Below, in pieces: positions 17,459 through 45,533 of a stretch of DNA of 64,000 bases; the stretch's first letter is position 1, and every line of letters starts with the position of its first letter. Source of the stretch: a bacterium (GTDB lineage: Bacteria; Bacillota; Clostridia; Oscillospirales; CAG-272); contig CAVGAA010000004.1 in the NCBI GenBank assembly GCA_963627065.1, positions 1,147 to 65,146 of the forward strand, written 5' to 3'. The position numbers and the translations under genes were made by a program. Under the pieces are notes generated by a model. The model saw nothing but the letters and a program-made list of their open reading frames with translations. It was not told the origin of the DNA and searched no databases.

Positions 17459-17481
17459 AATATGAACACTCGGAGGACTTT

Positions 17482-24040: not shown

Positions 24041-24075
24041 CCCCGACCGCAAACTGTGGTCGGGGCATTTTGATT
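24041..24075. terminator. Rho-independent terminator shared by the ten-gene operon and the convergent downstream gene
   Basis: CCCCGACC (24041-24048), a 9-nt loop, GGTCGGGG (24058-24065), then CATTTTGATT. It begins 26 nt after the gene J stop. Confidence 0.7.
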
Positions 24076-24089
24076 CGCATATTTTCGAT

Positions 24090-24764
24090 TTACAAGCTGT
24101 TATAAGATAGCATACAGATGAGCCAACCAAGAACTGAAATGTAGCAGTTGACAAGACCGATAATACCGAAAACCAATGTCGAAACAGGTCTTGGGAGATT
24201 TTCTCTTCCACATTTCCGAAAAATCCGAATCGACTTGATGCCGAGTATCAATGCCACTACAAAGACAATCGGGAATAGAAGGAACGCCGACCAATTGTAA
24301 AAGCACAAAACGATAAAGGAGCAAATGCTTGCAAGAAAAGAGCCGAATGCAATTCCGAAGCCTTGCATTTTTCCGCTCGGTGCGGTCGGTTGAGCATTTT
24401 TCGCTACCGTCGTTGTTAGCGGTTCGGGCTTGTTTACAAAGGCAAATTGCGATTGGATATTGTCGAATTCCGCACTCCCGATTTCGGCACTGCCGATTTC
24501 TGTGCCGTCCGGTTTGGCATTGTCGAATTCCTCATCACCGTATTTGCTCAATATCGCATGACCGTCGTTTGCACTGTTTTCGGCATTTCCGTCAAACTGA
24601 AATTCTTTCGTGACGGTTCTGATCGGTTTACCGTCCTTGTCGAGCAGAGGCGTAAGTTTGTCGGCGGTATGCAAATAATTGACACCGGTTTCTTTGTCAC
24701 GCAGAATTTCGATGTTTGCAGGCATCCCCTGCGTGTAAATCACATCAAAACGTTTATCTGTCAT
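24090..24764 (-). CDS. Membrane protein with a small soluble N-terminal head (possibly DUF6440-like) and a C-terminal multi-TM module
   Basis: 224 aa. The N-terminus reads RFDVIYTQGMPANIEILRDKETGVNYLHTADKLTPLLDKDGKPI. There is an internal EIGSAEIGSAEFDN duplication. The C-terminal TM module (RPVSTLVFGIIGLV) is paralogous to that of the next gene. Confidence 0.55.
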   Translation of the reverse strand: MTDKRFDVIYTQGMPANIEILRDKETGVNYLHTADKLTPLLDKDGKPIRTVTKEFQFDGNAENSANDGHAILSKYGDEEFDNAKPDGTEIGSAEIGSAEFDNIQSQFAFVNKPEPLTTTVAKNAQPTAPSGKMQGFGIAFGSFLASICSFIVLCFYNWSAFLLFPIVFVVALILGIKSIRIFRKCGRENLPRPVSTLVFGIIGLVNCYISVLGWLICMLSYNSL

Positions 24765-24866: not shown

Positions 24867-25409
24867 TTAAACGAGAGCAAGGACCGTAATGAGAGATGCC
24901 AAGAAATAGACAATGGTTGTCGCACTCATCACGCAGGCAATGATTCCGAGTACCAAAGTGGACACCGGTTTGACTTTTCCTGCGTTTTTGTTGTTGATGA
25001 AAAGTTTAATGGACAGAATTCCGTTCCGAATGCTGAATACGAGGGCAACCATAAACGGGAGCGAGGAAAGCAGAAATCCGATGACGTTTCCGACTCCGTT
25101 CGCCACGACCTGACGAACAACGAAAATGAGATTGGTCAATTCAACGATTGAAAAGACCGCTTGGCTGACGATTGCCGATGCCAATGCACGATTGAAGCCG
25201 TCCATTCTGCTCCCTTTGTCGTCGGGGGTGCTGAAATTGATTTTTTCGACATTTTCGTTTTCGAAACGGTTGTCCGTGTTGCCGGAGTTGTCATTCTGGT
25301 TCGACTCCGCCTGCTTTGACGTATCAAAGAGCAGTTCCGCATTGCGACAGTCTTCGCAAAGGCTTTCGTCCGAGTCGATTTTCTTTCCGCATTTTGTACA
25401 GTAAGGCAT
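24867..25409 (-). CDS. Zinc-ribbon membrane protein, paralogous in its TM module to 24090-24764
   Basis: 180 aa. The N-terminus is MPYCTKCGKKIDSDESLCEDC. The C-terminal TM module contains KPVSTLVLGIIACV. Confidence 0.55.
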   Translation of the reverse strand: MPYCTKCGKKIDSDESLCEDCRNAELLFDTSKQAESNQNDNSGNTDNRFENENVEKINFSTPDDKGSRMDGFNRALASAIVSQAVFSIVELTNLIFVVRQVVANGVGNVIGFLLSSLPFMVALVFSIRNGILSIKLFINNKNAGKVKPVSTLVLGIIACVMSATTIVYFLASLITVLALV

Positions 25410-25439: not shown

Positions 25440-26393
25440 TTATATTTCGGGTTGATTTTCCTTTAAGAATTCTTCGATTGTGCCGTCATATTTTTCTACG
25501 GCATTGATTCGCACGTGAGAGTGAATTCCCTTTTCGAACCACACAATTTGTTTTTTCTCCGAACCGCATTTTTCATACATTTGCCCGATGTCCGCCGGTG
25601 TGGAGTAGATGTCCTCTTTGCTGTAAAGGAAGAGCATCGGCTTTTTCATCTCTCCGATACAGTTGACGGGGCTGTATTTTTTCGGATTTTTACCGGACAC
25701 CAGTTTGATGAGCAGTAAAATAATTTCCGTTGTGGGTTGCGGTGCGTGTTTCCGCTCTTTGATGCGTTTTTCAAGCATATCGCCGAAATGCAGGTACATT
25801 CCGTCATTTGTAAGCCCTGCAAGATAGTCAGGGGCGTCTTTTGCCGTGAGAGCATTGAGTGCCGTTGCCGAGCCGATGCAGATTCCGTGAAACCAAACGG
25901 ATTTGACATGGCATTCGTCATGCAGAAACGCCGACCATTTGAGCAAGTCCCGATATTCGAGCATACCGACCGTGTTGTAACGTCCTTCCGACAGACCGTG
26001 CGAACGGTTGTCGATTGCCAAAACATTATAGCCCATTTTGCGGTAGGGTTCTGCGAAATAGTAAGAATAAACGCAGGTTTCCATTCGCCCCGATACGATA
26101 ATCACGGCACGGTCACAACCGAAATCGAAGTATTCTCCGACCAGTTTAAAGCCGTCACTCGTGACCGACACCTGCCGATGAAAGTCTTTGTACTTTTCGC
26201 CCCACTCCTCGCCGAGAGCGAACATTCTTTTCTGTTCCTCATTGTCCCAACTGCAATTGCGTGACCACTTTTCCGGTTTGGTCCTGACCAAGAGAATTTT
26301 GAAAATGACTATCGGAACAATCACACAATTGACGAGAAGACAGGAGAACAGTACAAAACCGACAATTCCCAATATGATATAAAGTGCCGTCAT
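25440..26393 (-). CDS. Membrane-anchored alpha/beta hydrolase with Cys at the nucleophile elbow
   Basis: 317 aa with an N-terminal TM segment. The elbow reads FHGICIGSA, with the Cys codon at 25878-25880. This aligns with LHGVSMGAT in the paralog at 30361-31287. Asp-like (SKEDIY) and His-like (GIHSH) positions are conserved. Confidence 0.65.
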   Translation of the reverse strand: MTALYIILGIVGFVLFSCLLVNCVIVPIVIFKILLVRTKPEKWSRNCSWDNEEQKRMFALGEEWGEKYKDFHRQVSVTSDGFKLVGEYFDFGCDRAVIIVSGRMETCVYSYYFAEPYRKMGYNVLAIDNRSHGLSEGRYNTVGMLEYRDLLKWSAFLHDECHVKSVWFHGICIGSATALNALTAKDAPDYLAGLTNDGMYLHFGDMLEKRIKERKHAPQPTTEIILLLIKLVSGKNPKKYSPVNCIGEMKKPMLFLYSKEDIYSTPADIGQMYEKCGSEKKQIVWFEKGIHSHVRINAVEKYDGTIEEFLKENQPEI

Positions 26394-26401
26394 TTTTCCT
26401 C

Positions 26402-28048
26402 CTACACGATGCCGACAATTACGTCATAGATTTGTTGCCCGCCGTCAAGGAATTCTCGGTCCATATCGGAAAATTCCGTGTCCAGTGCCTTGTCGATTTT
26501 CTCCTCGGCATCGGCAGTCAGGTTTGAACCTCGCAGGAGGACAAAAGAGCCTTTTTCGGCGATATCGGGAATGGCTTTTACCGCCTCGACCAGTGCGGTT
26601 TCGATGTTTTGGCTTGCCGAGATGAGCTTTGAACCGATAAAGCCGATATAGTCACCGCATTTGCAGGAAAATGTGAAATTTTGATAATCCTTTATAGCCT
26701 TTGCAACGTAAACCGTTGTAATGCTTTCCGCTCCGTCCCGCATCGCCCCGATTCGTTCGTCCGTGTCTTCGATGTCGGGGGAACCGAGTGCCAATGCGTA
26801 GTACCCCTCCATAACCGATTTGGTTTCGAGGACCGTGACGTTTGAAAGTCCACAGACCTCCCCTGCCTGCCGTGCCGTCTGAATGATGTTGCGGTTATTC
26901 GGCAGGACGACGATGCGGTCGGCATCAAACGATTCAAAAGCGTTGACGAAATCTTCCGACGGCGGATTCATGGACTGTCCCCCACGCAGAACAATGTCAC
27001 ATCCGCACCCCGTGAGAATGTCCGAAATGCCGTCCCCGTCCGCCACGGCGACCACGGCAAGTTTTTTGTGTACCCGCTCTTTTTTCTTTGCTTGGTTTGC
27101 GATGAATTCGTTGTGTTGCATCTGCATATTTTCGAGTTTGAAGGTTACGAATTCGCCGTAACGCCTTGCAAATTCCATGACTTTTTCGGGGCAGAATGTG
27201 TGAATATGCACTTTGACGATGCCGTCACTTTCAAGGGCGACGAGCGATGTTCCCATACCGGTTAATGTGCCGATGAACGGTTGGATTTCGAAGTCTATCG
27301 CCTGCCGTTCTTTGTCGGTGAGTTGCAGGAGAAATTCCATACAGTAGCCGTACTCAAACGTTGCGTTTGTCGGTATATTCGGTTGTGCCGATACCGTTTC
27401 GCTTGCGATATCCGTGCCTTTTTTCGGCAGAATTTCTTCACCGTACATAGTCCGCACCATACCGTCAAAAATTGTGATATATCCGACCGCTCCGCTGTCA
27501 AGGACATTCGCCTCACGCAGGACATCGAGAATTTCGGGGGTATGTTTGACCGATTTTTTCATTTCCGCCAGATACAACGACAGTACCAAGTCGCAGGTTA
27601 TTCCGTGCCGGATCTGCGGAAGAATGTTTTCGATTCCCTCACGTGCGACCGTGAGGAGCGTGCCTTCCACCGGATGAATGACGGCTGAATATGCCGTTTT
27701 GTAGGCTCTGATGAGTGCGTTTCGCATCTCCCCCGCATCGACGATGCCGTCATCCGCAAGTTCCTCCGCTATCCCCCTGAACAACTGCGAGAGAATGACA
27801 CCGGAGTTTCCTCTTGCCCCCAAGAGCATACCGTGGCTCAACTGCTTGATATACCGACCGAAATGCTTGTCCGATTTGGCGTGTTCAATGCCGTTTTCGA
27901 GCGTTCTCCGCATATTGAAACCTGTATCGCCGTCCGGTACGGGAAAGATATTCATTTCGTTGATTTCTTTCTCGTGGTTGCAAAGATTTGTGAAACCGCC
28001 TCTTACCATGGCTTCAAAAATCTGCCCGTTCAATCTTTGTAGTCTCAT
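26402..28048 (-). CDS. fakA: DAK2-domain protein of the YloV/FakA type (fatty-acid kinase catalytic subunit-like)
   Basis: 548 aa. It carries the Dak2 signature FPVPDGDTGFNMRRTLENG. Length and architecture are typical of FakA/YloV. A DegV gene lies in the same operon. Confidence 0.65.
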   Translation of the reverse strand: MRLQRLNGQIFEAMVRGGFTNLCNHEKEINEMNIFPVPDGDTGFNMRRTLENGIEHAKSDKHFGRYIKQLSHGMLLGARGNSGVILSQLFRGIAEELADDGIVDAGEMRNALIRAYKTAYSAVIHPVEGTLLTVAREGIENILPQIRHGITCDLVLSLYLAEMKKSVKHTPEILDVLREANVLDSGAVGYITIFDGMVRTMYGEEILPKKGTDIASETVSAQPNIPTNATFEYGYCMEFLLQLTDKERQAIDFEIQPFIGTLTGMGTSLVALESDGIVKVHIHTFCPEKVMEFARRYGEFVTFKLENMQMQHNEFIANQAKKKERVHKKLAVVAVADGDGISDILTGCGCDIVLRGGQSMNPPSEDFVNAFESFDADRIVVLPNNRNIIQTARQAGEVCGLSNVTVLETKSVMEGYYALALGSPDIEDTDERIGAMRDGAESITTVYVAKAIKDYQNFTFSCKCGDYIGFIGSKLISASQNIETALVEAVKAIPDIAEKGSFVLLRGSNLTADAEEKIDKALDTEFSDMDREFLDGGQQIYDVIVGIV

Positions 28049-28059
28049 AAATCGTCCGT

Positions 28060-29415
28060 TTAACCGTTCTTTTTAATTTCTTTTCTTATATCTTCTTGGC
28101 TCTTATCTTCTTTTCCGAGTACCACGATTGAATGCGGTAAAATGAATGTAAATGCGAATGCGACAAGGCAACCGACAGCCGAAATCAAAGTCATAAAAAT
28201 GATTTTGTCTGCCGTTTTGAGTGCCGTTAAGACAACGCCGGTCGCAAGCCCCGAGAACACGCCCGAGAAGAGTCCCTGCACCGCAAAATACATTGCCGAG
28301 TGCGAAATGCCCGTCCGCTTTTCGTCGTCTGCGGCAAGTTGGGAGGGAATGGAGTAGGCAACCGAAAAGATAGCACCGACCGCAAAGGAGCAGATAAGAC
28401 CGCCGACAATGCCGAGTACTTTTTTAGCCGTATCGCTCGGAATAAACGCAAAACCGAAGAGTGCCGCCATTGCAGAAGCGAAAATCAGGAGGACATACTG
28501 AATTGCGAAACGGAAGCCTTTTTTGCGGATGAGGTAGTTATAAAGCATTAGGGTAAGCGGAACAGGTCCGAACGCCGCAACCATTACGAGCATCATACTC
28601 ATACCGGTTTTGGAGAAATACTCGTTGATACCGCCGAGATAGAGTTGCACGCCGAAGGTCAGGAAGGAATAAACGACCATCCAGCAGATGAAATCTTTGT
28701 CTTTCAATGTATAGACGAGCGATTTGACGATGTTGACCGATTTCCCGCTTGATTCGCTGTTTTTGGTGGACGGCTCTTTGATGAGGAACATCGGAATGAG
28801 CATAAAGAGAACGAGGGGCAAAGTCACCATGGCGACTTTGCGAATGTTCATACCGTTCAGCATCACGCCGACCAACACATAACCGATGATAAAGTAAACA
28901 ATGTCGCAGACCGATTTGACGTTGGAAATGAAGTTTCTGTCCTGCTCGTTGTCGACAATTTCTGTGAATGTTGCGTAATAACTGACAAGCGTTAACGTGT
29001 AGGAGCAGTAGAAAATGCAGAGCATCACGCCGTAGTAAACCGTGTTGAGAACGGTTGCCCCGTCCTGCGGTGTAAAGAGGGTGAATGCGACAAAGGATGC
29101 GACAACCGCCACCAGTCCTGCGAGAATGGTCGGTCTACGCCGTCCCCAGCGGGATTTGAGGTTATCGGTTAAGGTTGCCATAGGAATGTCGATGATGCCG
29201 TCAATGATTTTTGCAACGAGTGCAAAGACCGCCCAAATGCCTGCAATGACCAGATTTTTGCCCGCAAAAGTTTGATTTGCAATTGCCTCCGCACCGAAAC
29301 CGTCCGCAATCAATGCGGAACAGAGATACGAACCCATCATCAGATTGAGAAAGTTTACCCCAATCGCCGAACATGCATAGAGGAGCATTTTCCCTCTGCT
29401 TCTTAAAACTCTCAT
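28060..29415 (-). CDS. MFS transporter of the GPH/MelB-like (MFS_2) branch
   Basis: 451 aa with about 12 hydrophobic segments. The GPH signature is TLTDNLKSRWGRRRPTILAG. Confidence 0.7.
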   Translation of the reverse strand: MRVLRSRGKMLLYACSAIGVNFLNLMMGSYLCSALIADGFGAEAIANQTFAGKNLVIAGIWAVFALVAKIIDGIIDIPMATLTDNLKSRWGRRRPTILAGLVAVVASFVAFTLFTPQDGATVLNTVYYGVMLCIFYCSYTLTLVSYYATFTEIVDNEQDRNFISNVKSVCDIVYFIIGYVLVGVMLNGMNIRKVAMVTLPLVLFMLIPMFLIKEPSTKNSESSGKSVNIVKSLVYTLKDKDFICWMVVYSFLTFGVQLYLGGINEYFSKTGMSMMLVMVAAFGPVPLTLMLYNYLIRKKGFRFAIQYVLLIFASAMAALFGFAFIPSDTAKKVLGIVGGLICSFAVGAIFSVAYSIPSQLAADDEKRTGISHSAMYFAVQGLFSGVFSGLATGVVLTALKTADKIIFMTLISAVGCLVAFAFTFILPHSIVVLGKEDKSQEDIRKEIKKNG

Positions 29416-29429
29416 TGTATTATCCTCTC

Positions 29430-30356
29430 TTATTTGAGTAATTCGGTCAAAATTTTTCTTTCTTCGTCCAATCCGACGGAAATCGGTTTTCCGAGGTAGT
29501 ATGCCGCCATAAGTCCCGGACCGACGTTGATTCCGCAGGACGGATACACACTGTTCATATACAGTTTTTTGGGGTGAATTTCCTTTTCAATCAGTTCTCT
29601 GTAAATCTCCGCTTGCTTTTTGCGGTCGGAAGTCGCAATTAAAATAATTTGGTCTTCCGGATTTTCAATCGTGCGTTTGATATACTCGATGAGAACTTTG
29701 AACCCCTGCTTTTCGCCTTTCGCTTTTGCAAGAGCCGTTGTCAAGCCGTTATAGTCGAATTCCCCTATCGGTTTGACTCCCGCCAAAGTGCCGAAAAGTG
29801 CTTTTGCGTGACTGATTCTGCCTTTCTTTGCGACAAAGGACAACTCGTCCAGCCAACCTGCCTGATGAATGCGGTTTTTATTCTGCTCCAACCAATCGGC
29901 GACCTCATCAACGTCCTTTCCCTCACTCCGCAGAATCGATGCATAAATTGCCATAAGCCCGCAACCGGAACTGAACCGTCTGGAATCGATGCAACGGATA
30001 CGGATATTCGGATATTTTTCCGCCGTGGCGTCGCAGGCATTTTTGACAAAGTTATATGTTCCCGAAAGTTGCGACGAAATGGTCAGTGTGAGAATGTCAA
30101 TGCCCTTTTCTGCGTAAGACTTGAAAATTTCACAGCACTCATCGGTGTTCGGGGGCGATGTGGAAAAATCGTTCGGGTGTGCTTTGAGTTGCTTGTAAAA
30201 CTCCTCCGAGGACATATCGCCCCAGTCCAAGAATCCCGGGGTTTCGTGTCCGTCCGGAAACCGCAGATGTCCGTTGAGAAAGCCGATATTGAACTCCGCA
30301 CGCAGAGCATCGCTCAGGTCGCAGGTAACGTCCGGTAAAATTACAAAATCTCGCAT
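29430..30356 (-). CDS. fakB: DegV-family fatty-acid-binding protein (FakB-like)
   Basis: 308 aa. The N-terminus is FVILPDVTCDLSD. The layout is DegV-like and includes IDSRRFSSGCGLMAIYA. Confidence 0.65.
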   Translation of the reverse strand: MRDFVILPDVTCDLSDALRAEFNIGFLNGHLRFPDGHETPGFLDWGDMSSEEFYKQLKAHPNDFSTSPPNTDECCEIFKSYAEKGIDILTLTISSQLSGTYNFVKNACDATAEKYPNIRIRCIDSRRFSSGCGLMAIYASILRSEGKDVDEVADWLEQNKNRIHQAGWLDELSFVAKKGRISHAKALFGTLAGVKPIGEFDYNGLTTALAKAKGEKQGFKVLIEYIKRTIENPEDQIILIATSDRKKQAEIYRELIEKEIHPKKLYMNSVYPSCGINVGPGLMAAYYLGKPISVGLDEERKILTELLK

Positions 30357-30360
30357 TTTT

Positions 30361-31287
30361 TCACTCTCCTATAAATTGAAATATTTTTTGTCTGATTTCA
30401 GGACCGCCGAGAATTGTCGACACCGCATGACCGGCACTCTCAACGATGTACAATTCTTTGCGTGACGAACAAGCATCGTAATTCGCCATACTGTGTTCCT
30501 TTGTGACAACGTCATCTTCCGCTCCGTGCAGAAAGAGGCAGGGAATTTTCGACCTCGACAGATGCGTTTGCGTTTGCTCCTCCGGTTTCACCTCACCGAA
30601 CCGTTTGCCAAGATGCAAGCCGATTTTGAAGAGCCATTTCGGCAGATGTTGGTATTTTCCGAGACTTTCTCCAAGTCCCCGCAACGATGTAAAACCGCAG
30701 TCGAGTATCAATGCGGTGACACGTTCGTCCACGATTCTGTCGGATGCCATTGCCAATGCCGTTGCCCCCATGGAAACGCCGTGCAGGACGATTTTCCGAT
30801 AGGGCTTGTCACGGAATTTGTCGAGCCACAAAAGGAAATCTTCGCTTTCCCGATAGCCGTATGTAACGAAATTTCCTTCGCTTTCCCAGTGTGTCCGCTC
30901 CTCAATGAGCAGAATATCATAACCGTGATTTCGATAGTCTTCCCCGACAACGCCGAAGTTGTGCCACGGAACTGCGTGAATGCCGTGACAGAAAATGACA
31001 AGTTTTTCTCCGCCGTTTTCATAAAATCTTGCCGAAAGATTCAAGCCGTCCGCCGATTTACACCAAATTCTCTCATAAGGCAGTGATTCCGCTTTTTCGC
31101 TTGCTTTTTTGATTTCTTCACGGCAGTTGTCGTAATAGTGGTCATGCATGGAAATACGCAACATTTTTTCGGGTTGCATTCGCCTGAAAAATTTGTGAAA
31201 GAAGACCGCAATCACAATCAGAATCGATAACACAAATCCGCCGAGCAGGAGAGCCACCGCCAAGAGAATCCAACTTTGTACCGTCAC
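30361..31287 (-). CDS. Membrane-anchored alpha/beta hydrolase (Ser nucleophile)
   Basis: 308 aa with an N-terminal TM segment. The triad-like elements are GVSMG, LHGAEDDVV and SAGHAV. The GTG start overlaps the upstream stop by 4 nt. Confidence 0.7.
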   Translation of the reverse strand: MTVQSWILLAVALLLGGFVLSILIVIAVFFHKFFRRMQPEKMLRISMHDHYYDNCREEIKKASEKAESLPYERIWCKSADGLNLSARFYENGGEKLVIFCHGIHAVPWHNFGVVGEDYRNHGYDILLIEERTHWESEGNFVTYGYRESEDFLLWLDKFRDKPYRKIVLHGVSMGATALAMASDRIVDERVTALILDCGFTSLRGLGESLGKYQHLPKWLFKIGLHLGKRFGEVKPEEQTQTHLSRSKIPCLFLHGAEDDVVTKEHSMANYDACSSRKELYIVESAGHAVSTILGGPEIRQKIFQFIGE

Positions 31288-32294
31288 AATGTCACCTCCC
31301 CGATGCGAGTTGCCCTGCCGTTCTCAACTAGATAAAGCAGGAGAAACGGAGCAAATTCACCGGACACGGCAAGCAGATAATCGCCTATCGCCAAGTGTTT
31401 GACGTTCTTTCCGTCAAGCGTTATTTCGGCAGGGGCAAAAACGCCTTCGCCTGTTTCTTTATAAACGCTCTCTTTGGCGGTCCAGATCTTCAAAAGGTCT
31501 GTCGGATCGGTTGTGTCTGCACCGATTTTCTTTGCAAATGCAGTGGAAAAGCCGTCTTTTTCGCATTTTTCCTTGAATTTCGAAAGATTTTCAATGTCGA
31601 TTCCGCACGCCCCGTTCGAAACGACGACCGCCACCGTACCGTCCGTATGGGATAAGGAAAATTTGCATTCTTTCGCCGTCCATTTTCCGTATTTCGTCTT
31701 TTTGAATTTCACTTTGTCGGTATCGAGATTCATACCGTCACGGAGTGCGACAAGGAGCAGATTCCACGCATTGATTTTTTGCTTTTTCAGGTCTTCGTTC
31801 CCGATCAGGTCTATTTCTTTTTTGCGTGCGTGGGGCAAATCGGAGTCGGAGATTACCGTATCATCGAAGGAAACATACACCGAAAAGCGAGGTCTGTTCT
31901 GCCATTTTTCACGCAATTTTTCTTCCTGCTCGCTGTATTTTCTGCCGAACGCACACAGATATGCAAAATGTTCGCAATTGTTGTGCAGGATATTATATCC
32001 ACCCTCGCCGAGTTTTGCCCTTGCGTTCTCAACGATTTTTTCGGGTTTGAAAATCGTTTTTTTCTCTTTGCGGTCGGGAATGCCAATTTCGAGAATCCCG
32101 CCCATGAGAAAATCTTCGGCATTCGTCCGCAGGACCGTGACCAGTTCACCTTTGTGTTCCCCCGTATAATAGGACGGCGGGCGACCGAATTGAATGATTT
32201 CGTCGGGCGACACGAAAATGCCGTAATGGTAAACATCGCCGATGCGGACTCGGACAATGTCACCTGCCCTGCACTCCTCGGGTAACCACTTCAA
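31284..32294 (-). CDS. Fusion protein: N-terminal LRAT/PLAAT-like (NlpC/P60 superfamily) domain plus C-terminal Sfp-type 4'-phosphopantetheinyl transferase
   Basis: 336 aa. The N-terminal domain has VYHYGIFV and the family signature NCEHF (31965-31979). The C-terminal domain has LSHTDGTVAVVVSNGACGIDIE and WTAKESVYKETGEG. The start codon is TTG. Confidence 0.65.
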   Translation of the reverse strand: MKWLPEECRAGDIVRVRIGDVYHYGIFVSPDEIIQFGRPPSYYTGEHKGELVTVLRTNAEDFLMGGILEIGIPDRKEKKTIFKPEKIVENARAKLGEGGYNILHNNCEHFAYLCAFGRKYSEQEEKLREKWQNRPRFSVYVSFDDTVISDSDLPHARKKEIDLIGNEDLKKQKINAWNLLLVALRDGMNLDTDKVKFKKTKYGKWTAKECKFSLSHTDGTVAVVVSNGACGIDIENLSKFKEKCEKDGFSTAFAKKIGADTTDPTDLLKIWTAKESVYKETGEGVFAPAEITLDGKNVKHLAIGDYLLAVSGEFAPFLLLYLVENGRATRIGEVTL

Positions 32295-32539
32295 CGCAGT
32301 TTCTCCGTTATGAAGTCAACGACTTCGCCGACCGTTTCAAAAGGCTTTTCGTTGTCAAAAACGATGCCGAAAGTTTCTTCGACCGCTATGACCAGATAGA
32401 GCATTCCGACCGAAGACAAGCCGAGGTCTGTCAACAGTTTGGTGCTGTCGGTGGCATTTTCAAACTTGTCACGGTTCTTTGCGTCCATTCCGATAAGAAC
32501 ACTTTTCAACTTTTCGTATATTTCGTCCCTTGTCAACAT
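32291..32539 (-). CDS. Stand-alone acyl carrier protein
   Basis: 82 aa. The carrier fold signature is LLTDLGLSSVGMLYLVIAVEETF, with a Ser attachment site. Confidence 0.7.
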   Translation of the reverse strand: MLTRDEIYEKLKSVLIGMDAKNRDKFENATDSTKLLTDLGLSSVGMLYLVIAVEETFGIVFDNEKPFETVGEVVDFITEKLR

Positions 32540-34059
32540 TTGTGATACCTCGCAATCTTCATACTCGGCGTTCTGTCAAAATCTTTGTCACGAATGACGA
32601 TTTTGGTTGCCCTTTGGAAAGTCGGCAAAGAAAGATTCGTTTTTTCGAGTTCCTGCATCATATAGGCGTTTTTATCGGCGACGTCCAATTTTGCGAGAAC
32701 CGCTCCCCTCGGCACGATTTCAAGCGACAGAAAATGCCGTCCGCTTTCGTCAACGTCTTCAAAAAGTTGCGAATCCTGCACGAACGAAAGTTCATTGAAT
32801 CGGCTTTCCACCTCAGCCGGCGATACGTTTTCTCCGTTCGGAAGAATGATAACTTCCTTGATTCGTCCCGTGATATAGAGGAAGCCCCCGTCATCGATTT
32901 TCACAAGGTCACCGGTCCTGAACCAACCGTCAACATAGGCGGTTTTGTTGTCCTCGGGATTCACGTAGCCGTCCATCATATTTTTGCCTTTGAGCCACAA
33001 CTCGCCGTCAACGATTTTCAATTCCTGATTCGGATACGGAATGCCGACCGATGCGGGCTTTTTGTAATTTTCCGGATTTCCGCACACAAGGTTGGCACTT
33101 TCGGTTAAACCGTACCCTGCCAGCAGTACAATGCCGATTTTGCGATATTCTTCAATGAGATACGGGGCAACCGGTGCCGCACCGCAAATGATGCATTTGA
33201 GGTCGTTCCCGAGCATATTTTTGCCGAACTGCTTGGAGAGCGACAGAGCCATTTCGCAAAGAGCCGGAACGGCTACAAGAACCGTCGGTTTGAAAATTGC
33301 AATGTCACGGAACATATCTTTGTTATTCCGACAGATCCACAGCGTACTGCCGGTATAAAGCGACGTCATAAGATTCCGAATCAAGCCGAACACGTGCGAC
33401 AGAGGCAGGACAAGCAGGTATTTCTGCCCGAACACGTCACGAATTCCGTAACATCCGTTGACAGTCCCCTGCATCACGGCTTCGTGCGAAAGTTTTACGC
33501 CTTTGCTCTTTCCGGTTGTACCGCCGGTAAACATTACGACACAGGCATCGTGCGGAGCGACATCGGCAGGTTCTGTTGCGGTGTCGGCTTCCTCGCTTGT
33601 CAAAATGACTCGGCAGGCGGGATTTTTCTCGCCCAACGTTTTGGTTGTGTCGTGCAGGTCTGCATTGGTGATAACGGCTTTCAGACCGAACGACAGACTG
33701 CAACCGAGCAGAGCCGTATCGTTCAGGTGCGGAGGTAAAACAGCAACACATACACCGTAGGTTACGCCTGCTAAATAGGCTTTGACAAAATCGTAAGAAT
33801 TGCGGATGAAAACGCCGATGCCGTCGCCCTTTTTCAGTCCCGCATTTGAGAGTACCGTGCGGAATTTTGCAATGTCGGAGTCGATTTCGGCATAGGTGTA
33901 AGTTTTGCCGTTATCGGCAATGGCGGTTTTGTCGGCGTAGTTTTTTACGCAATGCCCCCACATACTTACCACGTCCGGATATTCGATAATTTTCGCAAAT
34001 GTTTCCGCAGATGTGTACTTTGCAAACAAATCTCTTGTGGTCATACCGTGTTCCCCCAA
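32533..34059 (-). CDS. AMP-binding acyl-CoA/acyl-ACP synthetase
   Basis: 508 aa. Motifs seen are FTGGTTGKSKGVKLSH, GYGLTESA and WFRTGDLVKIDDGGFLYITGRIKEVI. Confidence 0.8.
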   Translation of the reverse strand: MGEHGMTTRDLFAKYTSAETFAKIIEYPDVVSMWGHCVKNYADKTAIADNGKTYTYAEIDSDIAKFRTVLSNAGLKKGDGIGVFIRNSYDFVKAYLAGVTYGVCVAVLPPHLNDTALLGCSLSFGLKAVITNADLHDTTKTLGEKNPACRVILTSEEADTATEPADVAPHDACVVMFTGGTTGKSKGVKLSHEAVMQGTVNGCYGIRDVFGQKYLLVLPLSHVFGLIRNLMTSLYTGSTLWICRNNKDMFRDIAIFKPTVLVAVPALCEMALSLSKQFGKNMLGNDLKCIICGAAPVAPYLIEEYRKIGIVLLAGYGLTESANLVCGNPENYKKPASVGIPYPNQELKIVDGELWLKGKNMMDGYVNPEDNKTAYVDGWFRTGDLVKIDDGGFLYITGRIKEVIILPNGENVSPAEVESRFNELSFVQDSQLFEDVDESGRHFLSLEIVPRGAVLAKLDVADKNAYMMQELEKTNLSLPTFQRATKIVIRDKDFDRTPSMKIARYHKC

Positions 34060-34064
34060 TTATT

Positions 34065-34742
34065 TTAGTTGCGATGCCCTCGGTAAAATTCTTTCAGTTC
34101 GTTTTCTTTCTCAAAAATCGTTTTTGTCATGGTATCGATATATTCGAGCGGTGACACCGATCCGTCAAGCGAAATTGTAATGGGTTCGCCTATCACAATC
34201 ACCAACCGTTTGAAAATGTTCTTGCGGTTATGCACGTAAACGGGAATAACCGGTTTTCCGCTTTTGAGTGCCATGAGAACCGCTCCCGACTTGAAAGCCT
34301 GCATTTCTTCTTTATCCGTCACGTTGATATGCCCTTCGGGAAACATCGTAACGACACCGTCACCTTTGAGAATGCCGACAATTTCATGCACCGTTGCGGA
34401 ACTGACGTTTTCACGGTCAATGCGGATGCAGTGTGCAACAGTTCCGAACAGAAAGCGTTTGAAACGAGTCGAGAACAACTCTTTCGTAGCTATGAATCTC
34501 TGACGGCGGTAACCGACGGCAAGAACGAGATAAACGGGATCGCAAAAGCCGATATGATTGGAAATGAGTAATGCTCCGCCGTGAATTTTCTTTTTCGCAC
34601 GTTCGGAAATATAATATTTTTTCGGTCTGTACCAAATGAATGCCGTAACCAGAACAAAAGCGAAGGCTAAATCGTACAGAAAATGATTCCACCGATATTT
34701 CTTTTTTTCGCTCTCGGCATTCCGTTCTTTTTTACTTTTCAT
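34065..34742 (-). CDS. PlsC-family (lysophospholipid) acyltransferase 1
   Basis: 225 aa. It has an N-terminal TM segment, an HxxxxD box (SNHIGFCDP) and FPEGHIN. Confidence 0.75.
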   Translation of the reverse strand: MKSKKERNAESEKKKYRWNHFLYDLAFAFVLVTAFIWYRPKKYYISERAKKKIHGGALLISNHIGFCDPVYLVLAVGYRRQRFIATKELFSTRFKRFLFGTVAHCIRIDRENVSSATVHEIVGILKGDGVVTMFPEGHINVTDKEEMQAFKSGAVLMALKSGKPVIPVYVHNRKNIFKRLVIVIGEPITISLDGSVSPLEYIDTMTKTIFEKENELKEFYRGHRN

Positions 34743-35352
34743 ATGCCTCTAAATCAATGACCTTCTGTCGCAAAAATTCCGTAATGGCGTTCAGATTCGC
34801 ACGTTCGGTTTTGCTCCCGTCATACAAATCCCGACACAAAACAGGTTTTCCGATAACCACTTTCGTCCGCTTTCCGTGAAAATAATTTCCGCTTGTACGG
34901 ACGGGAATTATCGGCACGTCCGCATACAATGCAAGATAGACCGCTCCGGACTTGAATGCAAGGGGCGTTTCTTCCTCGGGGAGCGGAATCCTGCCCTCCG
35001 GAAAGATACCGACAACACCGCCACGGTCGAGAACCGTGCGGGATTTTTCGATAAAGCCGAAGTGGAATGAACCTCTGTCGACCTCAATTCCGCCCATGGC
35101 ACGCAGAAAATGCCCCAAAACTTTCTTCCTGAAAAGCACTTCCGCCATTTGATAACGCAATGTCCTCGTGAAGAAGACAAAGAGGAAAACGCCGTAATCG
35201 TAAACCGATGTATGATTGGAAACGATGATTGCCGGTCCTTTGATTTTCCTCGACTGCACCGATTTGTCTTCGTAAAAAACTTTTGTCCGAAAGACGATTT
35301 TCTGCAAGAGCCAACCGGTGATTTTGACAAACCAATTTACAAATGCTATCAT
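34732..35352 (-). CDS. PlsC-family acyltransferase 2
   Basis: 206 aa from the ATG at 35352 (MIAFVNWF...). The longer track ORF would overlap the upstream gene by 200 nt. It has an HxxxxD box (SNHTSVYDY) and FPEGRIP. Confidence 0.7.
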   Translation of the reverse strand: MIAFVNWFVKITGWLLQKIVFRTKVFYEDKSVQSRKIKGPAIIVSNHTSVYDYGVFLFVFFTRTLRYQMAEVLFRKKVLGHFLRAMGGIEVDRGSFHFGFIEKSRTVLDRGGVVGIFPEGRIPLPEEETPLAFKSGAVYLALYADVPIIPVRTSGNYFHGKRTKVVIGKPVLCRDLYDGSKTERANLNAITEFLRQKVIDLEAYEK

Positions 35353-35359
35353 AATGCTA

Positions 35360-37285
35360 TCACAATTTTTCGGAAAGGTACTCCGCAATACCGCCAACGG
35401 TTCTGAGCGATTCGGTCGCCGTATCGGGAAACGAAACGGCAAAATCTTCCTGCAACGATGATATGAGTGCAAAATAATCCAAACTGCTACCGCCCTCGTC
35501 CGTGAAAAAGTCCGAATCGATGCCGACCTCGTCCGCAGGCTTGGAAAGTGCCACTGCAAAATAAGTGCGGACTTTCAAGAGCAGTTCGTCCGTGACGGCG
35601 GTATTTTCCGTTTTGTTCCCCTGCCATGCGGTCATGGCACCGCTCTCGTAGTCGGCTTTGAGGCGTCGGCGGTTGAGTTTGAATTCATTCCCCACAATGA
35701 GGTCGTCGGTTGTCACAAAGATTTTTCCGACCTGCCCCGTGAGTTTCCGTTCGGTTATTTTCCGCTTTATTTCGGTGAGCAGTTTTTCGCCGTCCGTTCC
35801 CGACAGATGCCGATCGACCGACACGAGCAGTACGGCGAGTCCCCCGCCCTCTCCGCCGATGAGGCAAATGCCCTTTGCGTTTTCGCAGTGTAAACCGTCC
35901 TCAATCTGCACGGGATTGAGATTTTCACCGGTTGCGGAAACGATGAGATCGTCCGCACGTCCGAGCAGTTTATAACATCCTTTTTCGTATAGTGCCAAAT
36001 CGCAGGTTTTGTACCATTCGTTTTGAATCTGCGTTTTCCGTCCGTCCGCAAAAACATACTTGGCGGATGCCGTCCCACGAACGTACAGAATGCCCTCCCG
36101 CAACGTATATTCCGCCGACGGCAGAGGCACACCGACCGAACCGGAAACGATTTTTCTCCGACTTTGCGACAGTTCGACCGAAGTAATTCCAATCTCTGAC
36201 ATTCCGTAACCATTCGCAAGATGATAGCCGATATTGTTGAAAAAGCGTAACACATCCGTGTCGATACCGCTACCGCCGGAAATCATAAACCGGACACTGT
36301 CGCCGAAAAGATTTTCCCTCACCTCTGCAAAAGCCTTTTTCGTAAAGATTTTGCCGAGCGGTGAATTGCCGAGTCTGTCTGCAAGTTTCATACCGTGGCG
36401 GAATTGCTTTTCGGTCTTCTCCCCCCGTTCCCGAACGGTCTTCATTGCCTGACCGTACACCGTGTTCCAGAAGAGCGGAACGGCGAAAATATGCGTGACG
36501 CGGTGCTTGCGGATCGTCCCTAAAATTGTTTGCGGACGGAAATCGTTCAGTTTGACAAAAGTTCTCGAAAAGAAGCCGAACCACAGATAGACCGCAACGA
36601 AACCGAAAATATGGTAAAACGGCAGGAAAGTCAAAAGTTTCAACTGCCCGTGATAATGCTGTTTGATCCGCCGGTTGTGTCGCATCACGTAACGGCTGTT
36701 CTCGATGATTGTCGCAAGTTCTTTTGCACCGTAAGCACAAATTTTGACCGACGACGTGCCGGAAGAAAGCACGTAAAATTCTTCGCCGAATTCATCGCAG
36801 GAGTCGGTGCCGGTCCACTCCGGAATCCCCCCGAACAGAATTGTCGGGATTGAAAAAGTCTTGCCGTCCGATACGACCGCAACAACATGAAATTCCCGTA
36901 AAATCTCCTCGGTTTTCGCATCGTCGAATCTCGTATTGAGGAGCATCGGACAAAAACCTGCACGGAGAATCGCCCAAAATGCTATAATCCAGTCGCAGGA
37001 GTTTTCCATATAAAGCCCGACAACCGCCTGCGGTTTTGCCTGTGTTTTCTCGGTGATTGCACTTTTCAAGCCGTTCGATTTTTCGATGACTCGGTCATAC
37101 GCCTCTCCGTAAGTGATTTTCTTGATGCGGAGTCCGTCGGTTTCTTCGAAAAGGACGTTTTCACGCTCCGAGAACATCAAAGGGAAAAGGGACGGCATGG
37201 TTTTGTCCGACCTTTCGAGCAGTCCGATTTTATAATCCACATAACCGTCGATTTTTTTGAATCCGCCAAGATTATCGTATTTCAT
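35360..37285 (-). CDS. Adenylation (fatty acyl-AMP ligase-like) domain fused to a C-terminal carrier-protein domain
   Basis: 641 aa. Motifs seen are LSSGTSSVKICAYG, NGYGMSEIG and YKTCDL...GRADDLIV. The C-terminal thiolation motif is DEGGSSLDYFALISSL. Confidence 0.7.
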   Translation of the reverse strand: MKYDNLGGFKKIDGYVDYKIGLLERSDKTMPSLFPLMFSERENVLFEETDGLRIKKITYGEAYDRVIEKSNGLKSAITEKTQAKPQAVVGLYMENSCDWIIAFWAILRAGFCPMLLNTRFDDAKTEEILREFHVVAVVSDGKTFSIPTILFGGIPEWTGTDSCDEFGEEFYVLSSGTSSVKICAYGAKELATIIENSRYVMRHNRRIKQHYHGQLKLLTFLPFYHIFGFVAVYLWFGFFSRTFVKLNDFRPQTILGTIRKHRVTHIFAVPLFWNTVYGQAMKTVRERGEKTEKQFRHGMKLADRLGNSPLGKIFTKKAFAEVRENLFGDSVRFMISGGSGIDTDVLRFFNNIGYHLANGYGMSEIGITSVELSQSRRKIVSGSVGVPLPSAEYTLREGILYVRGTASAKYVFADGRKTQIQNEWYKTCDLALYEKGCYKLLGRADDLIVSATGENLNPVQIEDGLHCENAKGICLIGGEGGGLAVLLVSVDRHLSGTDGEKLLTEIKRKITERKLTGQVGKIFVTTDDLIVGNEFKLNRRRLKADYESGAMTAWQGNKTENTAVTDELLLKVRTYFAVALSKPADEVGIDSDFFTDEGGSSLDYFALISSLQEDFAVSFPDTATESLRTVGGIAEYLSEKL

Positions 37286-37309
37286 CGTCCTCTCACTGCC
37301 CCTTTATCA

Positions 37310-37362
37310 CCGAAAAACAAATCGCAACCGAAAAATAAGTCGCCCCGAAAAAACAAGTCCCC
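37310..37362. repeat. Three tandem 17-18-nt direct repeats in the leader of the lipid operon
   Basis: On the plus strand the units read CCGAAAAACAAATCGCAA / CCGAAAAATAAGTCGCC / CCGAAAAAACAAGTCCCC. They lie between the predicted -10 box (37378-37383) and the ATG (37285). Confidence 0.7.
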
Positions 37363-37377
37363 ATCTTAAATCTATTT

Positions 37378-37406
37378 ATTATACCATATTTTCGACAAAA
37401 AATCAA
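37378..37406 (-). promoter_or_regulatory. Putative sigma-A promoter of the lipid operon
   Basis: The minus strand reads TTGATT (37406-37401), a 17-nt spacer, and an extended -10 of TGgTATAAT (37386-37378). Confidence 0.5.
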
Positions 37407-37475
37407 CCGAAAATTCATATTTTCTTGCAGTTTGAAGACAGAATTCACGCTTTTCGGGTAGGGGAACGGGCGAAA

Positions 37476-37511
37476 ATGAAAAAAGAGAACCGCATTTTCA
37501 GCGATTCTCTT
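37476..37511 (-). terminator. Rho-independent terminator after the CE15-like esterase gene
   Basis: The minus strand reads AAGAGAATCGC, a loop, then GCGGTTCTCTT followed by TTTTTTCA. There is one mismatch in an 11-bp stem. Confidence 0.6.
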
Positions 37512-37531
37512 CAAAACTACTTTCTAAACTG

Positions 37532-38617
37532 CTATCTGTGCTTATCCATATAATCCATATAGATCTGCCAATCTTCACGACTGAGATAGTGCTTTCCGTG
37601 CCGAATGTGGTAAGAGAGATTTCCGCCCGATAAAACCTTTTTTGCAATCGGAATTTTGTCCTGTGTGACCAAACCGCTATTTCCGTAAAAGGTATCGTAT
37701 TTACCTGCTTGATAAAGGCACAGAAATTCGCTTACGGGATCTGCCCAAAGGTCTTCTTCCGCACCACCGACAAGAATGTGACGTGGCAGAGACAAAGCAA
37801 GCAGGAAATGTTGGTCGATTGGAATTTCTTTTCCCTCCTTTGCATTTCTTACAAAACGCGGGCAGAACCAAAACGGAAACACATCGGCGATCTGTTCGAC
37901 ACTTTCACCCTTCTTCATGCGAAGAAGAGCCGCACCGGAACAACCGGAATCATTTGAAATTACATAGCGAAATCTATCATCGTACGCAGACGCCAAAAGT
38001 GCCGCCTTGCCGAGTCGGGAATGTCCGATAACGGCAACTCTTTCACGGTCAATTTGCGGAATCGTTTCGATCATATCCATAACACGCATGGAGGCCCATG
38101 CCCACATGGCAATTTTTCCGGTTGCGTTTTCTTTCGTTCTGTCACGGCAAAGGACTTTGGCACAACCGTACGAAAAGTCGTTGCTATCAGTTGCGACTTC
38201 CTTATAGCAGAATGAAAAAATTGCATAGCCGTGATCGATAATTTCTTCAGTCGGTTGGTATATGTCGGGAATATGCGGTCGAAAATTGATATGGACGAAT
38301 GCCGGATTTTTGCCGTCCACTTTGTTCGGGATGACGGCTCGCACCGGAAACGAACAAAGCTCATTTCCCATAGCAATTATCAAATTATATAGCGAAAAAG
38401 TCGCTTTGCCTGCCAGAAATTCCGAATCGGTTTCCACAAGTTCCGCTTTGATACCGTCCGGTTTCGGTGGCATCATGCCGTATTCTTCCTCTTCGAGCAG
38501 GTGTCGCAAATACGGTTTTGCCTCATCAAGCATTCGGGCATTTGCAATCACCTGACCTTTTTCGTTTTCGAGTTGCGGTAAATGTCTTTCTTTAATTAGA
38601 GAATCCAAATAGTCCAT
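37532..38617 (-). CDS. Alpha/beta hydrolase, glucuronoyl-esterase (CE15)-like
   Basis: 361 aa from the ATG at 38617 (MDYLDSL...). The upstream part of the track ORF would overlap the preceding gene. The nucleophile motif IGHSRLGKAALLA resembles the CE15 G-x-S-R-x-G-K signature. Confidence 0.5.
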   Translation of the reverse strand: MDYLDSLIKERHLPQLENEKGQVIANARMLDEAKPYLRHLLEEEEYGMMPPKPDGIKAELVETDSEFLAGKATFSLYNLIIAMGNELCSFPVRAVIPNKVDGKNPAFVHINFRPHIPDIYQPTEEIIDHGYAIFSFCYKEVATDSNDFSYGCAKVLCRDRTKENATGKIAMWAWASMRVMDMIETIPQIDRERVAVIGHSRLGKAALLASAYDDRFRYVISNDSGCSGAALLRMKKGESVEQIADVFPFWFCPRFVRNAKEGKEIPIDQHFLLALSLPRHILVGGAEEDLWADPVSEFLCLYQAGKYDTFYGNSGLVTQDKIPIAKKVLSGGNLSYHIRHGKHYLSREDWQIYMDYMDKHR

Positions 38618-38627
38618 ACAATCGCCT

Positions 38628-40151: not shown

Positions 40152-40166
40152 TTGTTAACCCCTTTC

Positions 40167-45308: not shown

Positions 45309-45368
45309 AATATTTTCTCCTTTCACTCCGACAAACAAAATCGGAATGGCTTATACGGTCGGAATTTT

Positions 45369-45509
45369 TTATGGTTGCGTTTTATTCAGATTGATGATAG
45401 AGAAATAATCTTCCGTGTCCCCGACACCGGCACTTTGATTGGAAAGTGTGCAAATGTCATCACTGTCGAATTGCAGAAATTCAATTTTGGGTTGTAAATA
45501 TGCTTTCAT
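45369..45509 (-). CDS. Possible 46-aa small ORF between two operon genes
   Basis: Hand translation gives MKAYLQPKIEFLQFDSDDICTLSNQSAGVGDTEDYFSIINLNKTQP. An AAAGGA RBS lies 7 nt upstream. The ORF sits 24 nt after the upstream stop and ends 60 nt before the next start. It falls below the ORF-track length cut-off. Confidence 0.25.
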   Translation of the reverse strand: MKAYLQPKIEFLQFDSDDICTLSNQSAGVGDTEDYFSIINLNKTQP

Positions 45510-45533
45510 ATTTTAATCCTTTCCGACACTTTG

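Follow-up and report, generated by a model that had tools for sequence, protein, structure and literature searches.

A stretch of 64,000 nucleotides (contig CAVGAA010000004.1 of GenBank assembly GCA_963627065.1, positions 1,147 to 65,146 of the forward strand; Bacillota, Clostridia, Oscillospirales, CAG-272), referred to below as the window, was analysed with respect to a predicted operon of eleven minus-strand genes, G01 to G11, which runs from 37285 down to 25440. The operon is read, with about even confidence, as a self-contained system for the activation of acyl groups and their transfer onto lipids, which would draw on pre-formed and not on newly made fatty acids. Judged from the sequences, two ATP-dependent carboxylate-activating enzymes, two carriers, a phosphopantetheinyl transferase (PPTase) for their priming and two O-acyltransferases are co-inherited as a block. 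The most likely role, by analogy, would be the scavenging or remodelling of lipids in the manner of Aas/LplT; in E. coli, Aas, a fusion of an acyl-ACP synthetase with a PlsC-type acyltransferase, and the transporter LplT re-acylate imported lysolipids. This lipid reading was derived from the match of the PlsC proteins to Aas-type models, the phosphate-binding signature of G02, the lipid-handling DegV, FakA and PLAAT-like proteins, and the lack of recurring chain-building enzymes in the operon neighbourhood upon clustering of the open reading frames (ORFs) of related loci.

Conservation and architecture of the gene cluster

The LRAT–PPTase fusion protein (G06) was used as the bait of the survey, having been chosen as the most distinctive protein. 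A genome scan with one genome per species, performed with patterns in the LRAT domain only, yielded at least 522 candidate species-level genomes, of which only the 80 examined loci were confirmed. In all 80, the LRAT–PPTase gene was found with operon partners wherever the contig reached far enough, and all 80 were from uncultured Clostridia (Oscillospiraceae, Christensenellaceae, Ruminococcus, CAG:727, Scatosoma, Coproplasma and others) of the human gut, the rumen and other animal guts. Carriers of the operon include GCA_045538735.1, CAG:727 FR898414 and MGYG-HGUT-01271. The proteins of the window were then mapped onto 85 loci by tblastn, with counts restricted to the 40 loci that had sufficient flank. 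G01 to G05 were all located beside G06 in 35 of these, and the identical eleven-gene order was found in 17. Protein identity between the conserved blocks was 35–75%, the flanking genes were unrelated, and the eleven-gene order was identical even in loci whose fusion protein shared 38–54% identity (gene calls, Pfam matches). Since the same order is kept at low identity between unrelated flanks, the arrangement is considered a conserved cassette and not a product of chance. Synteny in relatives, raised as a check in a preliminary description of the window, thus proved strong.

A near-constant core was observed, consisting of G01 (a carboxylate-adenylating enzyme with a fused carrier), the two PlsC proteins (G02, G03), the second ligase (G04), the free acyl carrier protein (ACP; G05) and the LRAT–PPTase fusion. 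It is usually accompanied by a GPH-type MFS permease and membrane-anchored alpha/beta hydrolases, and certain loci were without the MFS permease, without the second ligase, or without both the second ligase and the ACP. Two architectures were distinguished. In the long form, that of the window, G01 to G06 are followed by Ser hydrolase, DegV, MFS, FakA and Cys hydrolase, often with a third Ser hydrolase and Zn-ribbon proteins behind them. In the short form, which is without Fak genes, G01 is followed by an MFS protein of ~645 aa, G02 to G06, the third hydrolase and Zn-ribbon proteins. The third membrane-anchored Ser hydrolase (~360 aa, GHSxGG elbow) was present in 48 loci of both architectures (e.g. 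L026:11018-12127 and L001:17066-18136) and has no homologue in the window. An apparent extra gene between MFS and PlsC in the short form was dismissed, being only a C-terminal membrane extension of the 645-aa MFS protein.

FakA, DegV, the Ser hydrolase and the Cys hydrolase form an accessory module, which is carried by about half of the loci, including the window. Among the 40 fully flanked loci, FakA and DegV were present in 23 and absent from 17; the FakA/FakB pair named in the preliminary description thus retained its domain assignments but is not the heart of the operon. The tree of the fusion protein consisted of two clades, largely matching the long and the short form, and two loci of the short-form clade (L040, L073) carried Fak genes in rearranged order. 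As Fak genes therefore also occur in the short-form clade, in another order, the link between module and core would be old, recurrent and functional.

All-against-all clustering of every ORF in the 85 related loci returned ANL ligases (83 loci), LRAT–PPTase fusions (75), PlsC proteins (72), alpha/beta hydrolases (60), MFS permeases (58), Zn-ribbon membrane proteins (41), DegV (36) and FakA (34) as recurrent families, and no ninth family recurred in more than ~10 loci. For all residues checked, the catalytic positions were invariant across 37–83 orthologues per gene, and with these residues intact the enzymes look active.

Breadth of this kind bears on an alternative function, namely that these reduced, uncultured Clostridia are fatty-acid auxotrophs, without type II fatty acid synthesis (FASII) and its AcpP/AcpS, and depend on the operon as their principal and indispensable source of phosphatidic acid. 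Fatty acids of diet or host would be held on the operon's own carriers and transferred to glycerol-3-phosphate by G02 (sn-1) and G03 (sn-2). The wide vertical conservation (the candidate genomes and confirmed loci given above, and a G01 family of at least 2168 protein clusters) favours such a route, as do an LRAT–PPTase tree that mostly follows the two architectures, a base composition of the operon that resembles the remainder of the window, and the possession of an own ACP and PPTase, which a FASII-less cell would need. Some loci, however, are without the MFS permease or without second ligase and ACP, and with the features of G03 and of the PPTase described below this role is considered unlikely.

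Acyltransferases

In G02, H47x4D52, R93 and [FY]PE[SGA]R121 were invariant in 70/70 sequences and the P-I-I-P motif was present, so that the protein carries the full glycerol-phosphate acyltransferase (GPAT/LPAAT) signature with Arg in motifs II and III. Its best specific NCBIfam match was the model of the Aas-type acyl-[ACP]--phospholipid O-acyltransferase. In G03, H63x4D68 was invariant (74/74), and in motif III the residue after FPEG, a conserved Arg in G02, is variable (H, G, Q, R or T). For both proteins, the acyltransferase part of the Aas-type models gave better NCBIfam scores than E. coli PlsC did, which fits the analogy with Aas drawn in the preliminary description.

The two proteins pull in different directions where the acceptor is concerned. 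The complete signature of G02 would suit a main route to phosphatidic acid, against which the loss of one phosphate-binding Arg in G03 has to be set. That loss favours a further explanation, according to which the operon is a cluster for a specialised ester lipid: the PlsC proteins would conjugate exogenous fatty acids to a non-membrane acceptor, for instance a sugar, glycoside, hydroxy acid or alcohol. Export of the product or import of the acceptor would fall to the MFS permease, and host or other microbes may be targets of the product. For this explanation, likewise judged unlikely, the glycerol-phosphate acyltransferase signature retained by G02 is a difficulty, and the breadth and vertical inheritance of the cassette would be unusual for a specialised cluster. 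Condensation domain, glycosyltransferase and tailoring enzyme are all absent as well.

Adenylating enzymes and carrier proteins

Both ligases conserve the P-loop, the YGxTE glutamate, the TGD aspartate, the hinge arginine and the catalytic lysine, and both contain the motif LP[FL]xH[IV]FG of acyl/aryl-CoA ligases, not the amino-acid type. In G01, P-loop S174-K181, E364, D429, R443, K536 and the carrier Ser601 were conserved (K536 and S601 in 68/68); its LPFYH motif is of the acyl/aryl-CoA-ligase type and the alpha-amino-binding Asp is absent. Its closest solved relative is 4-chlorobenzoate CoA ligase. In the NCBI annotation G01 is named 'non-ribosomal peptide synthetase', a name that speaks for a specialised lipid. 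In G04, TGGTTGxxKG, E320, D384, R399 and K501 were conserved (K501 in 71/71), and the closest solved relatives are oxalate-, feruloyl- and o-succinylbenzoate-CoA ligases; the top NCBIfam matches were models of long-chain fatty-acid CoA ligases. As the stop codon of G04 overlaps the start of G05 by 7 nt, G04 is presumed to load the ACP.

G05 is predicted from its sequence and model to be a dedicated ACP. It reached 42 bits against the NCBIfam ACP models, under their cutoff, and Ser43 was invariant in 78/78 sequences. In a low-confidence structural model a helix begins at Ser43, and the top fold matches were all ACPs (TM 0.65–0.70).

Because the nearest solved relatives of both ligases use aryl or small acids, long-chain fatty acids as substrates were taken from the gene context only. 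The same relatives could be taken to mean that aromatic or short acids, such as plant phenolic acids, are activated by the ligases and transferred by the PlsC proteins, with the Fak genes only loosely associated, and the upstream neighbours in the window, which degrade plant polysaccharide esters, would fit such substrates. This is held to be very unlikely, however: flanking genes vary between loci; DegV, FakA, the PLAAT-like domain and PlsC indicate long acyl chains; and the NCBIfam list for G04 is headed by long-chain models.

LRAT–PPTase fusion protein

Both domains of G06 exceeded their Pfam cutoffs (LRAT 24.3 bits, ACPS 25 bits; scores in Table 1). H23, N105-F110, the NCEHF Cys107, D233, E235 and K279 were invariant, and K274 and E275 were conserved in at least 90%. 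The PPTase half is an ACPS-superfamily domain with the Mg-binding D-x-E and the motif W/F-x-K-E-x-x-x-K. A confident AlphaFold2 model (pLDDT, the predicted local distance difference test, 91.5) showed two domains. The N-terminal domain matched the folds of human PLAAT2/3/4 (target TM-score 0.72–0.80; PLAAT3, HRASLS2 and AdPLA 0.77–0.80), and the C-terminal half those of Sfp and human AASDHPPT (both E ~2e-9) and of mycobacterial PptT (2e-9 to 1e-5 overall). A C-terminal transmembrane (TM) anchor is a feature of PLAAT1-4; a search of G06 for hydrophobic segments found none, and its C-terminus is the PPTase, without such an anchor. Relatives in the protein database formed 297 clusters, almost all with both domains, and the public annotation of G06 is 'hypothetical' or 'PPTase superfamily protein'. 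No publication describing the fusion was found in full-text literature searches.

Sfp-type PPTases are typical of secondary pathways. The type of the PPTase domain therefore counts in favour of a specialised ester lipid and against a main route to phosphatidic acid.

Hydrolases, Fak module and permease

G07 and G11 are paralogues (28% identity). In G07, G-x-S172-x-G, D258 and H287 were invariant (41/41), a TM helix was found in 41/41 and was followed by a K/R bias in 36/41; among solved structures, the esterase 5G59 is closest. In G11, C172, D261 and H291 were invariant in 37/37 (G-x-C-x-G elbow), with one N-terminal TM helix and positive charges after it in 32/37. Since, by the positive-inside rule, charges after the TM helix place what follows in the cytoplasm, the catalytic domains of both proteins are predicted to be cytoplasmic, so that the proteins would not be secreted lipases. 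In a search of 1.84 billion representative proteins, the ~60 best matches of G11 carried Cys (3 exceptions) and the remoter ones Ser; by sequence, the Cys form is a discrete small clade, distinct from its Ser relatives. The gene lay directly after FakA in all examined loci but L024, where it was located downstream on the opposite strand.

In Firmicutes, FakA (Dak2) and FakB (DegV) form the kinase that activates exogenous fatty acids. G08 scored 190 bits against TIGR00762 (cutoff 99.7) and 100 bits against the FakB1 equivalog, under its cutoff of 350; in the tblastn-mapped loci its gene was always found together with FakA. In G10, PF02734, PF21645 and PF13684 were all over cutoff, the YloV subfamily model was passed (462 bits vs 396), and the equivalog of characterised FakA (VfrB) was matched with 369 bits, under its cutoff of 975. 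D39 and D41 (the DGDTG Asp pair), C236, H281 and H283 were invariant in 39/39; by comparison with S. aureus FakA, we take the aspartates to be the Mg/ATP site and Cys/His/His to be the metal site of the middle domain. An assignment of the Dak2 protein as a dihydroxyacetone kinase subunit, which the preliminary description had tied to a cognate DhaK/DhaM near the gene, was rejected: the FakA middle and C-terminal domains are present, the YloV cutoff is passed and no DhaK or DhaM was found nearby, so that the FakA/YloV type stands.

In the permease G09, D72, D76, R93, K167, D171, E214 and K400 were invariant. No kinship with LplT or Mfsd2a was detected in single-sequence and profile searches of solved structures; the sole solved-structure match was a marginal one to a plant sucrose transporter, and there was no match to the NCBIfam LplT-containing fusion models. 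The GPH family is best known for glycoside transport, and a permease of this family would suit a cluster for a specialised ester lipid.

For Gram-positive bacteria of gut and rumen, long-chain fatty acids in free form are toxic. The operon might serve their detoxification, with the acids captured, esterified to an inert lipid, and expelled or stored. The gut and rumen habitats, the several routes of fatty acid capture (DegV/FakA, ligases) and the permease fit this explanation, which is nonetheless given the lowest probability of those considered. Neither an efflux-type transporter nor a regulator was found to accompany the operon upon ORF clustering, and at the sequence level detoxification is indistinguishable from scavenging.

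Proposed function

For the scavenging or remodelling of lipids, the following sequence of steps is proposed. The carriers of G05 and G01 would be primed by G06; G01 would load its own carrier and G04 the free ACP, whereby fatty acids would be held as thioesters. G02, with both phosphate-binding Arg, would acylate an acceptor of the glycerol-phosphate type (lysophospholipid, glycerol-3-phosphate or glycerophosphodiester), and G03, with one Arg missing, would add a second acyl chain at a different position or to another acceptor. The GPH-type permease G09 would import the acceptor or move the product. In the long form, the added module would supply and recycle fatty acids at the membrane's inner surface: after release from esters by the membrane-anchored Ser hydrolase G07, they would be bound by DegV and phosphorylated by FakA. 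Because cysteine nucleophiles form thioester intermediates, the Cys hydrolase-fold protein G11 and the PLAAT-like domain of G06 may be, speculatively, better candidates for thioester-forming transacylases or editing enzymes than for hydrolases.

Several points weigh against this proposal. The solved structures nearest to both ligases are aryl- or small-acid CoA ligases and not FadD, FAAL or AasS, and G09 belongs to a family of glycoside transporters, with no detectable relation to LplT or any solved lipid transporter. No enzyme for a head group or acceptor recurs beside the operon in the 85 loci, nor do PlsX or PlsY, and no gene in the locus consumes the acyl-phosphate made by FakA. The Fak route and the ATP/AMP route are both present, which looks redundant. 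As all examined loci are from metagenome-assembled or otherwise uncultured genomes, they offer no experimental anchor.

A variant in which the acyl-phosphate would be used is considered quite unlikely. It consists of a FASII-independent assembly line for glycerolipids on the carriers, in which G11, with PlsX-like activity, would take over the acyl group of FakB-bound acyl-phosphate and hand it to the carriers or directly to the acceptor, and the PLAAT-like domain would shuttle acyl chains between phospholipid and carrier thiol without ATP. Neither of these two enzyme activities would have been described before. If true, many uncultured Clostridia of gut and rumen would build their membranes wholly from host or dietary lipids.

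Operon boundaries and transcription signals

The coordinates and domains that the preliminary description had assigned to the eleven genes were confirmed with the ORF list of the window and with Pfam and NCBIfam profiles (Table 1). On sequence grounds, G01 to G11, and probably D12 and D13, form one operon. Distances between consecutive genes from G01 to G11 were 7, -11, 5, -7, -4, -4, 4, 14, 11 and 8 nt. The better start of G04 is ATG 34044, which is preceded by a GGGGGA Shine-Dalgarno sequence (alternative start TTG 34059); the gap from G03 then becomes 20 nt and not 5. The tight packing described previously, with overlaps of 4–11 nt and short gaps, thus held, except that the largest gap is 20 and not 14 nt.

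Table 1. Genes and sequence features of the operon and its borders (positions in the window)
Feature	Description	Length (aa)	Position	Strand	Basis
Upstream hairpin	terminator-like hairpin of the upstream glucuronyl-esterase gene		37482..37512	-	12-pair stem, then T run
Promoter-like site	TTGATT-17 nt-TATAAT, extended TG		37378..37406	-	consensus match only
G01	ANL carboxylate-adenylating enzyme with C-terminal phosphopantetheine carrier	641	35360..37285	-	AMP-binding 1.6e-35, PP-binding 2e-9
G02	PlsC-family acyltransferase	206	34732..35352	-	PF01553 5.5e-21
G03	second PlsC-family acyltransferase	225	34065..34742	-	PlsC profile; 30% identity to G02
G04	stand-alone ANL ligase	503 (from ATG)	32533..34044	-	AMP-binding 9.5e-66
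G05	acyl carrier protein (predicted)	82	32291..32539	-	PP-binding 19.5 bits (cutoff 20.8)
G06	N-terminal PLAAT/LRAT domain, C-terminal Sfp-type PPTase	336	31284..32294	-	LRAT 57.3 bits, ACPS 33.3 bits
G07	Ser alpha/beta hydrolase, N-terminal membrane anchor	308	30361..31287	-	Pfam profile
G08	DegV family fatty-acid-binding protein (FakB-like)	308	29430..30356	-	PF02645 5.4e-54
G09	GPH/MFS_2 permease	451	28060..29415	-	MFS_2 95 bits
G10	FakA-type fatty acid kinase catalytic subunit	548	26402..28048	-	Dak2, FakA_M and FakA_C
G11	Cys alpha/beta-hydrolase-fold protein (HGICIG), N-terminal membrane anchor	317	25440..26393	-	profile match
D12	Zn-ribbon protein, ~4 TM segments	180	24867..25409	-	30 nt after G11, good Shine-Dalgarno sequence
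D13	DUF6440 membrane protein	224	24090..24764	-	profile match
Downstream hairpin	GC-rich hairpin between convergent genes		24041..24065	both	terminator-like on either strand

The upstream hairpin is the boundary of the unit as predicted from the sequence. The promoter-like site is the single one for the unit, and is followed by a leader of ~90 nt with a GAGAGGA Shine-Dalgarno sequence before G01; no strong terminator was located internally. No Rfam family was matched in the leader or operon (zero matches across the region), and thus no riboswitch or known RNA. Three exact copies and one near copy of TTTTCGG[GT][GT] were noted in the promoter and leader region (37300-37460, minus strand). The TTTTCGG motif is enriched across the whole window (11 observed vs 3.2 expected). 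Its repeat was dropped as a candidate operator, as no such array was present upstream in L001 and L006; the upstream region of L006 contains one partial copy, inside an apparent terminator hairpin.

Downstream, the unit probably extends past 25440 into D12 and D13, up to the hairpin at 24041-24065, which is likely a terminator for both strands; in the minus-strand direction, TTCTTCTGTT comes after it. The eleven genes of the preliminary description were therefore retained as members, and its end at 25440 was not, since two membrane-protein genes are likely included, given the spacing and the ribosome-binding site of D12. This gene is probably co-transcribed with the operon, and D13 is possibly the last gene of the unit. 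In 41 loci, of the long as well as the short form, homologues of D12 lie behind the operon in the same orientation, and D13 recurred less, with matches in 11 loci, three at a 40% coverage cutoff.

Neighbourhood of the operon

Zn-ribbon proteins like D12 (DUF4190-like, ~4 TM segments) occur in tandem arrays of up to four in related loci (e.g. L026:12153-12689). One gene beside a short-form cassette (L086:8707-9918, minus strand) encodes a protein of 403 aa that combines a PlsC acyltransferase domain at its N-terminus with a CxxC...CxxC zinc ribbon in the interior of the chain. A relationship of this protein to D12 was considered and rejected, no similarity being found. A HAD-family gene adjoins it, and a HAD gene was also located near the cassette in L087. 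The closest relatives, the CAG:727 group, carry a gene of the polysaccharide-deacetylase family after the Cys hydrolase and before the third hydrolase (L006:16896-17795, and likewise in four loci related to it); this gene is absent from the window.

Upstream of the operon, a run of plant-polysaccharide genes (37532-47258, minus strand) was observed, which is not conserved in related loci. In a profile scan, 37532-40151 (minus strand) contained a CE15-type glucuronyl esterase, followed by a 507-aa protein without Pfam match that is lipoprotein/solute-binding-like. Beyond 40151, two pectate-lyase-like beta-helix proteins and a look-alike of an SGNH-type esterase were recognised from the translations alone. 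On the other side, ten large co-directional genes on the plus strand (2147-24015) resemble a defence island. Among them are an SNF2 helicase resembling BrxHI/DrmD (4108-6981), a 1562-aa helicase (17431-22119; match to the candidate system PDC-S37 at 1e-107, also to Hhe and MkoA/C) and an IetA-like AAA ATPase (22807-24015). The remaining seven proteins gave no PADLOC match, and six of them were also without a Pfam match; that at 8661-12920 matched only an MBG domain.

Significance and comparison with known systems

The cassette occurs in many uncultured species of Clostridia from human gut, rumen and other guts, lineages that are abundant and whose lipid metabolism is essentially uncharted. Use of dietary or host fatty acids and lysolipids, if true, would explain part of the dependence of these lineages on the gut, would suggest supplements for their culture, and would bear on how antibiotics against fatty acid synthesis spare or hit them. 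A specialised ester lipid, if that explanation is true, would establish a new and widespread family of lipid clusters in the microbiome, parallel to the fatty-acid-amide clusters (host-receptor ligands). Under either reading, the PLAAT–PPTase fusion and the FakA-linked Cys hydrolase are targets for biochemistry.

Clostridial fatty-acid-amide clusters contain a PPTase, a lipid-binding protein, a hydrolase and stand-alone adenylation (A) and thiolation (T) proteins with a transferase (PMC10871352; PMC13310621). In the oaa cluster of Coprococcus eutactus and the ebf/ecf clusters, likewise from gut Clostridia, exogenous fatty acids are converted to amides with a free-standing non-ribosomal peptide synthetase condensation domain (PMC13310621; PMC10871352). 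The operon shares with these clusters the stand-alone A and T functions, PPTase, hydrolase, lipid-binding protein and occurrence in gut Clostridia, and this match of parts to ebf/ecf and oaa is a further point for a specialised lipid. It differs in having two PlsC-type O-acyltransferases where the amide clusters have a condensation domain, in having DegV where they have an SCP2-like lipid-binding protein, and in the presence of a kinase and a permease. A condensation domain was matched in none of the 13 operon proteins; the ORFs of the related loci were not scanned for this domain, and no further recurrent family was found among them. Membership in the fatty-acid-amide clusters was therefore excluded.

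With the mammalian PLAAT/HRASLS and LRAT proteins, the N-terminal domain of G06 shares the NCEHF Cys, the His and the PLAAT2/3/4 fold; G06 differs in being bacterial, without a C-terminal membrane anchor and fused to an Sfp-type PPTase. With FakA/FakB, the operon has in common the three FakA domains, the Mg/ATP aspartates, the Cys/His/His site and the DegV partner. Its G10 and G08 remained under the equivalog cutoffs (VfrB, FakB1), however, and lie within a carrier-protein operon and not in the usual housekeeping context, PlsX and PlsY not being nearby. The pair is, moreover, always joined by the Ser hydrolase and the Cys hydrolase-fold protein.

Aas/LplT and the single-chain MFS-PlsC-ANL fusions (PRK08633, PRK06814) resemble the operon in the combination of permease, HX4D acyltransferase and ATP-dependent ANL enzyme, which in the operon would likewise form an acyl-carrier thioester; G02 and G03 had their best scores with the acyltransferase region of these models. 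The three parts are fused there, whereas here they are separate proteins, with the set of acyltransferase, ligase and carrier doubled. Where Aas/LplT uses AcpP, the operon encodes a dedicated ACP, a fused carrier and a PPTase; the MFS protein is of the LplT type there and of the GPH/MFS_2 type here; and the PLAAT-like domain, the hydrolases and FakA/DegV are extra in the operon. Full-text literature searches found no paper on the operon, in line with the preliminary description, to whose author no operon of such composition was known. Each of its proteins belongs to a known superfamily, and the combination matches none of Aas/LplT, the Fak pathway and the fatty-acid-amide clusters. Reduced to what recurs at minimum, the cassette comprises a permease, a PlsC protein and an ANL enzyme with carrier. 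Its logic would be that of Aas/LplT, and the operon may be regarded, by analogy, as a doubled version of this re-acylation that does not depend on the housekeeping ACP, bringing carriers and a PPTase of its own and having a Fak module coupled to it.

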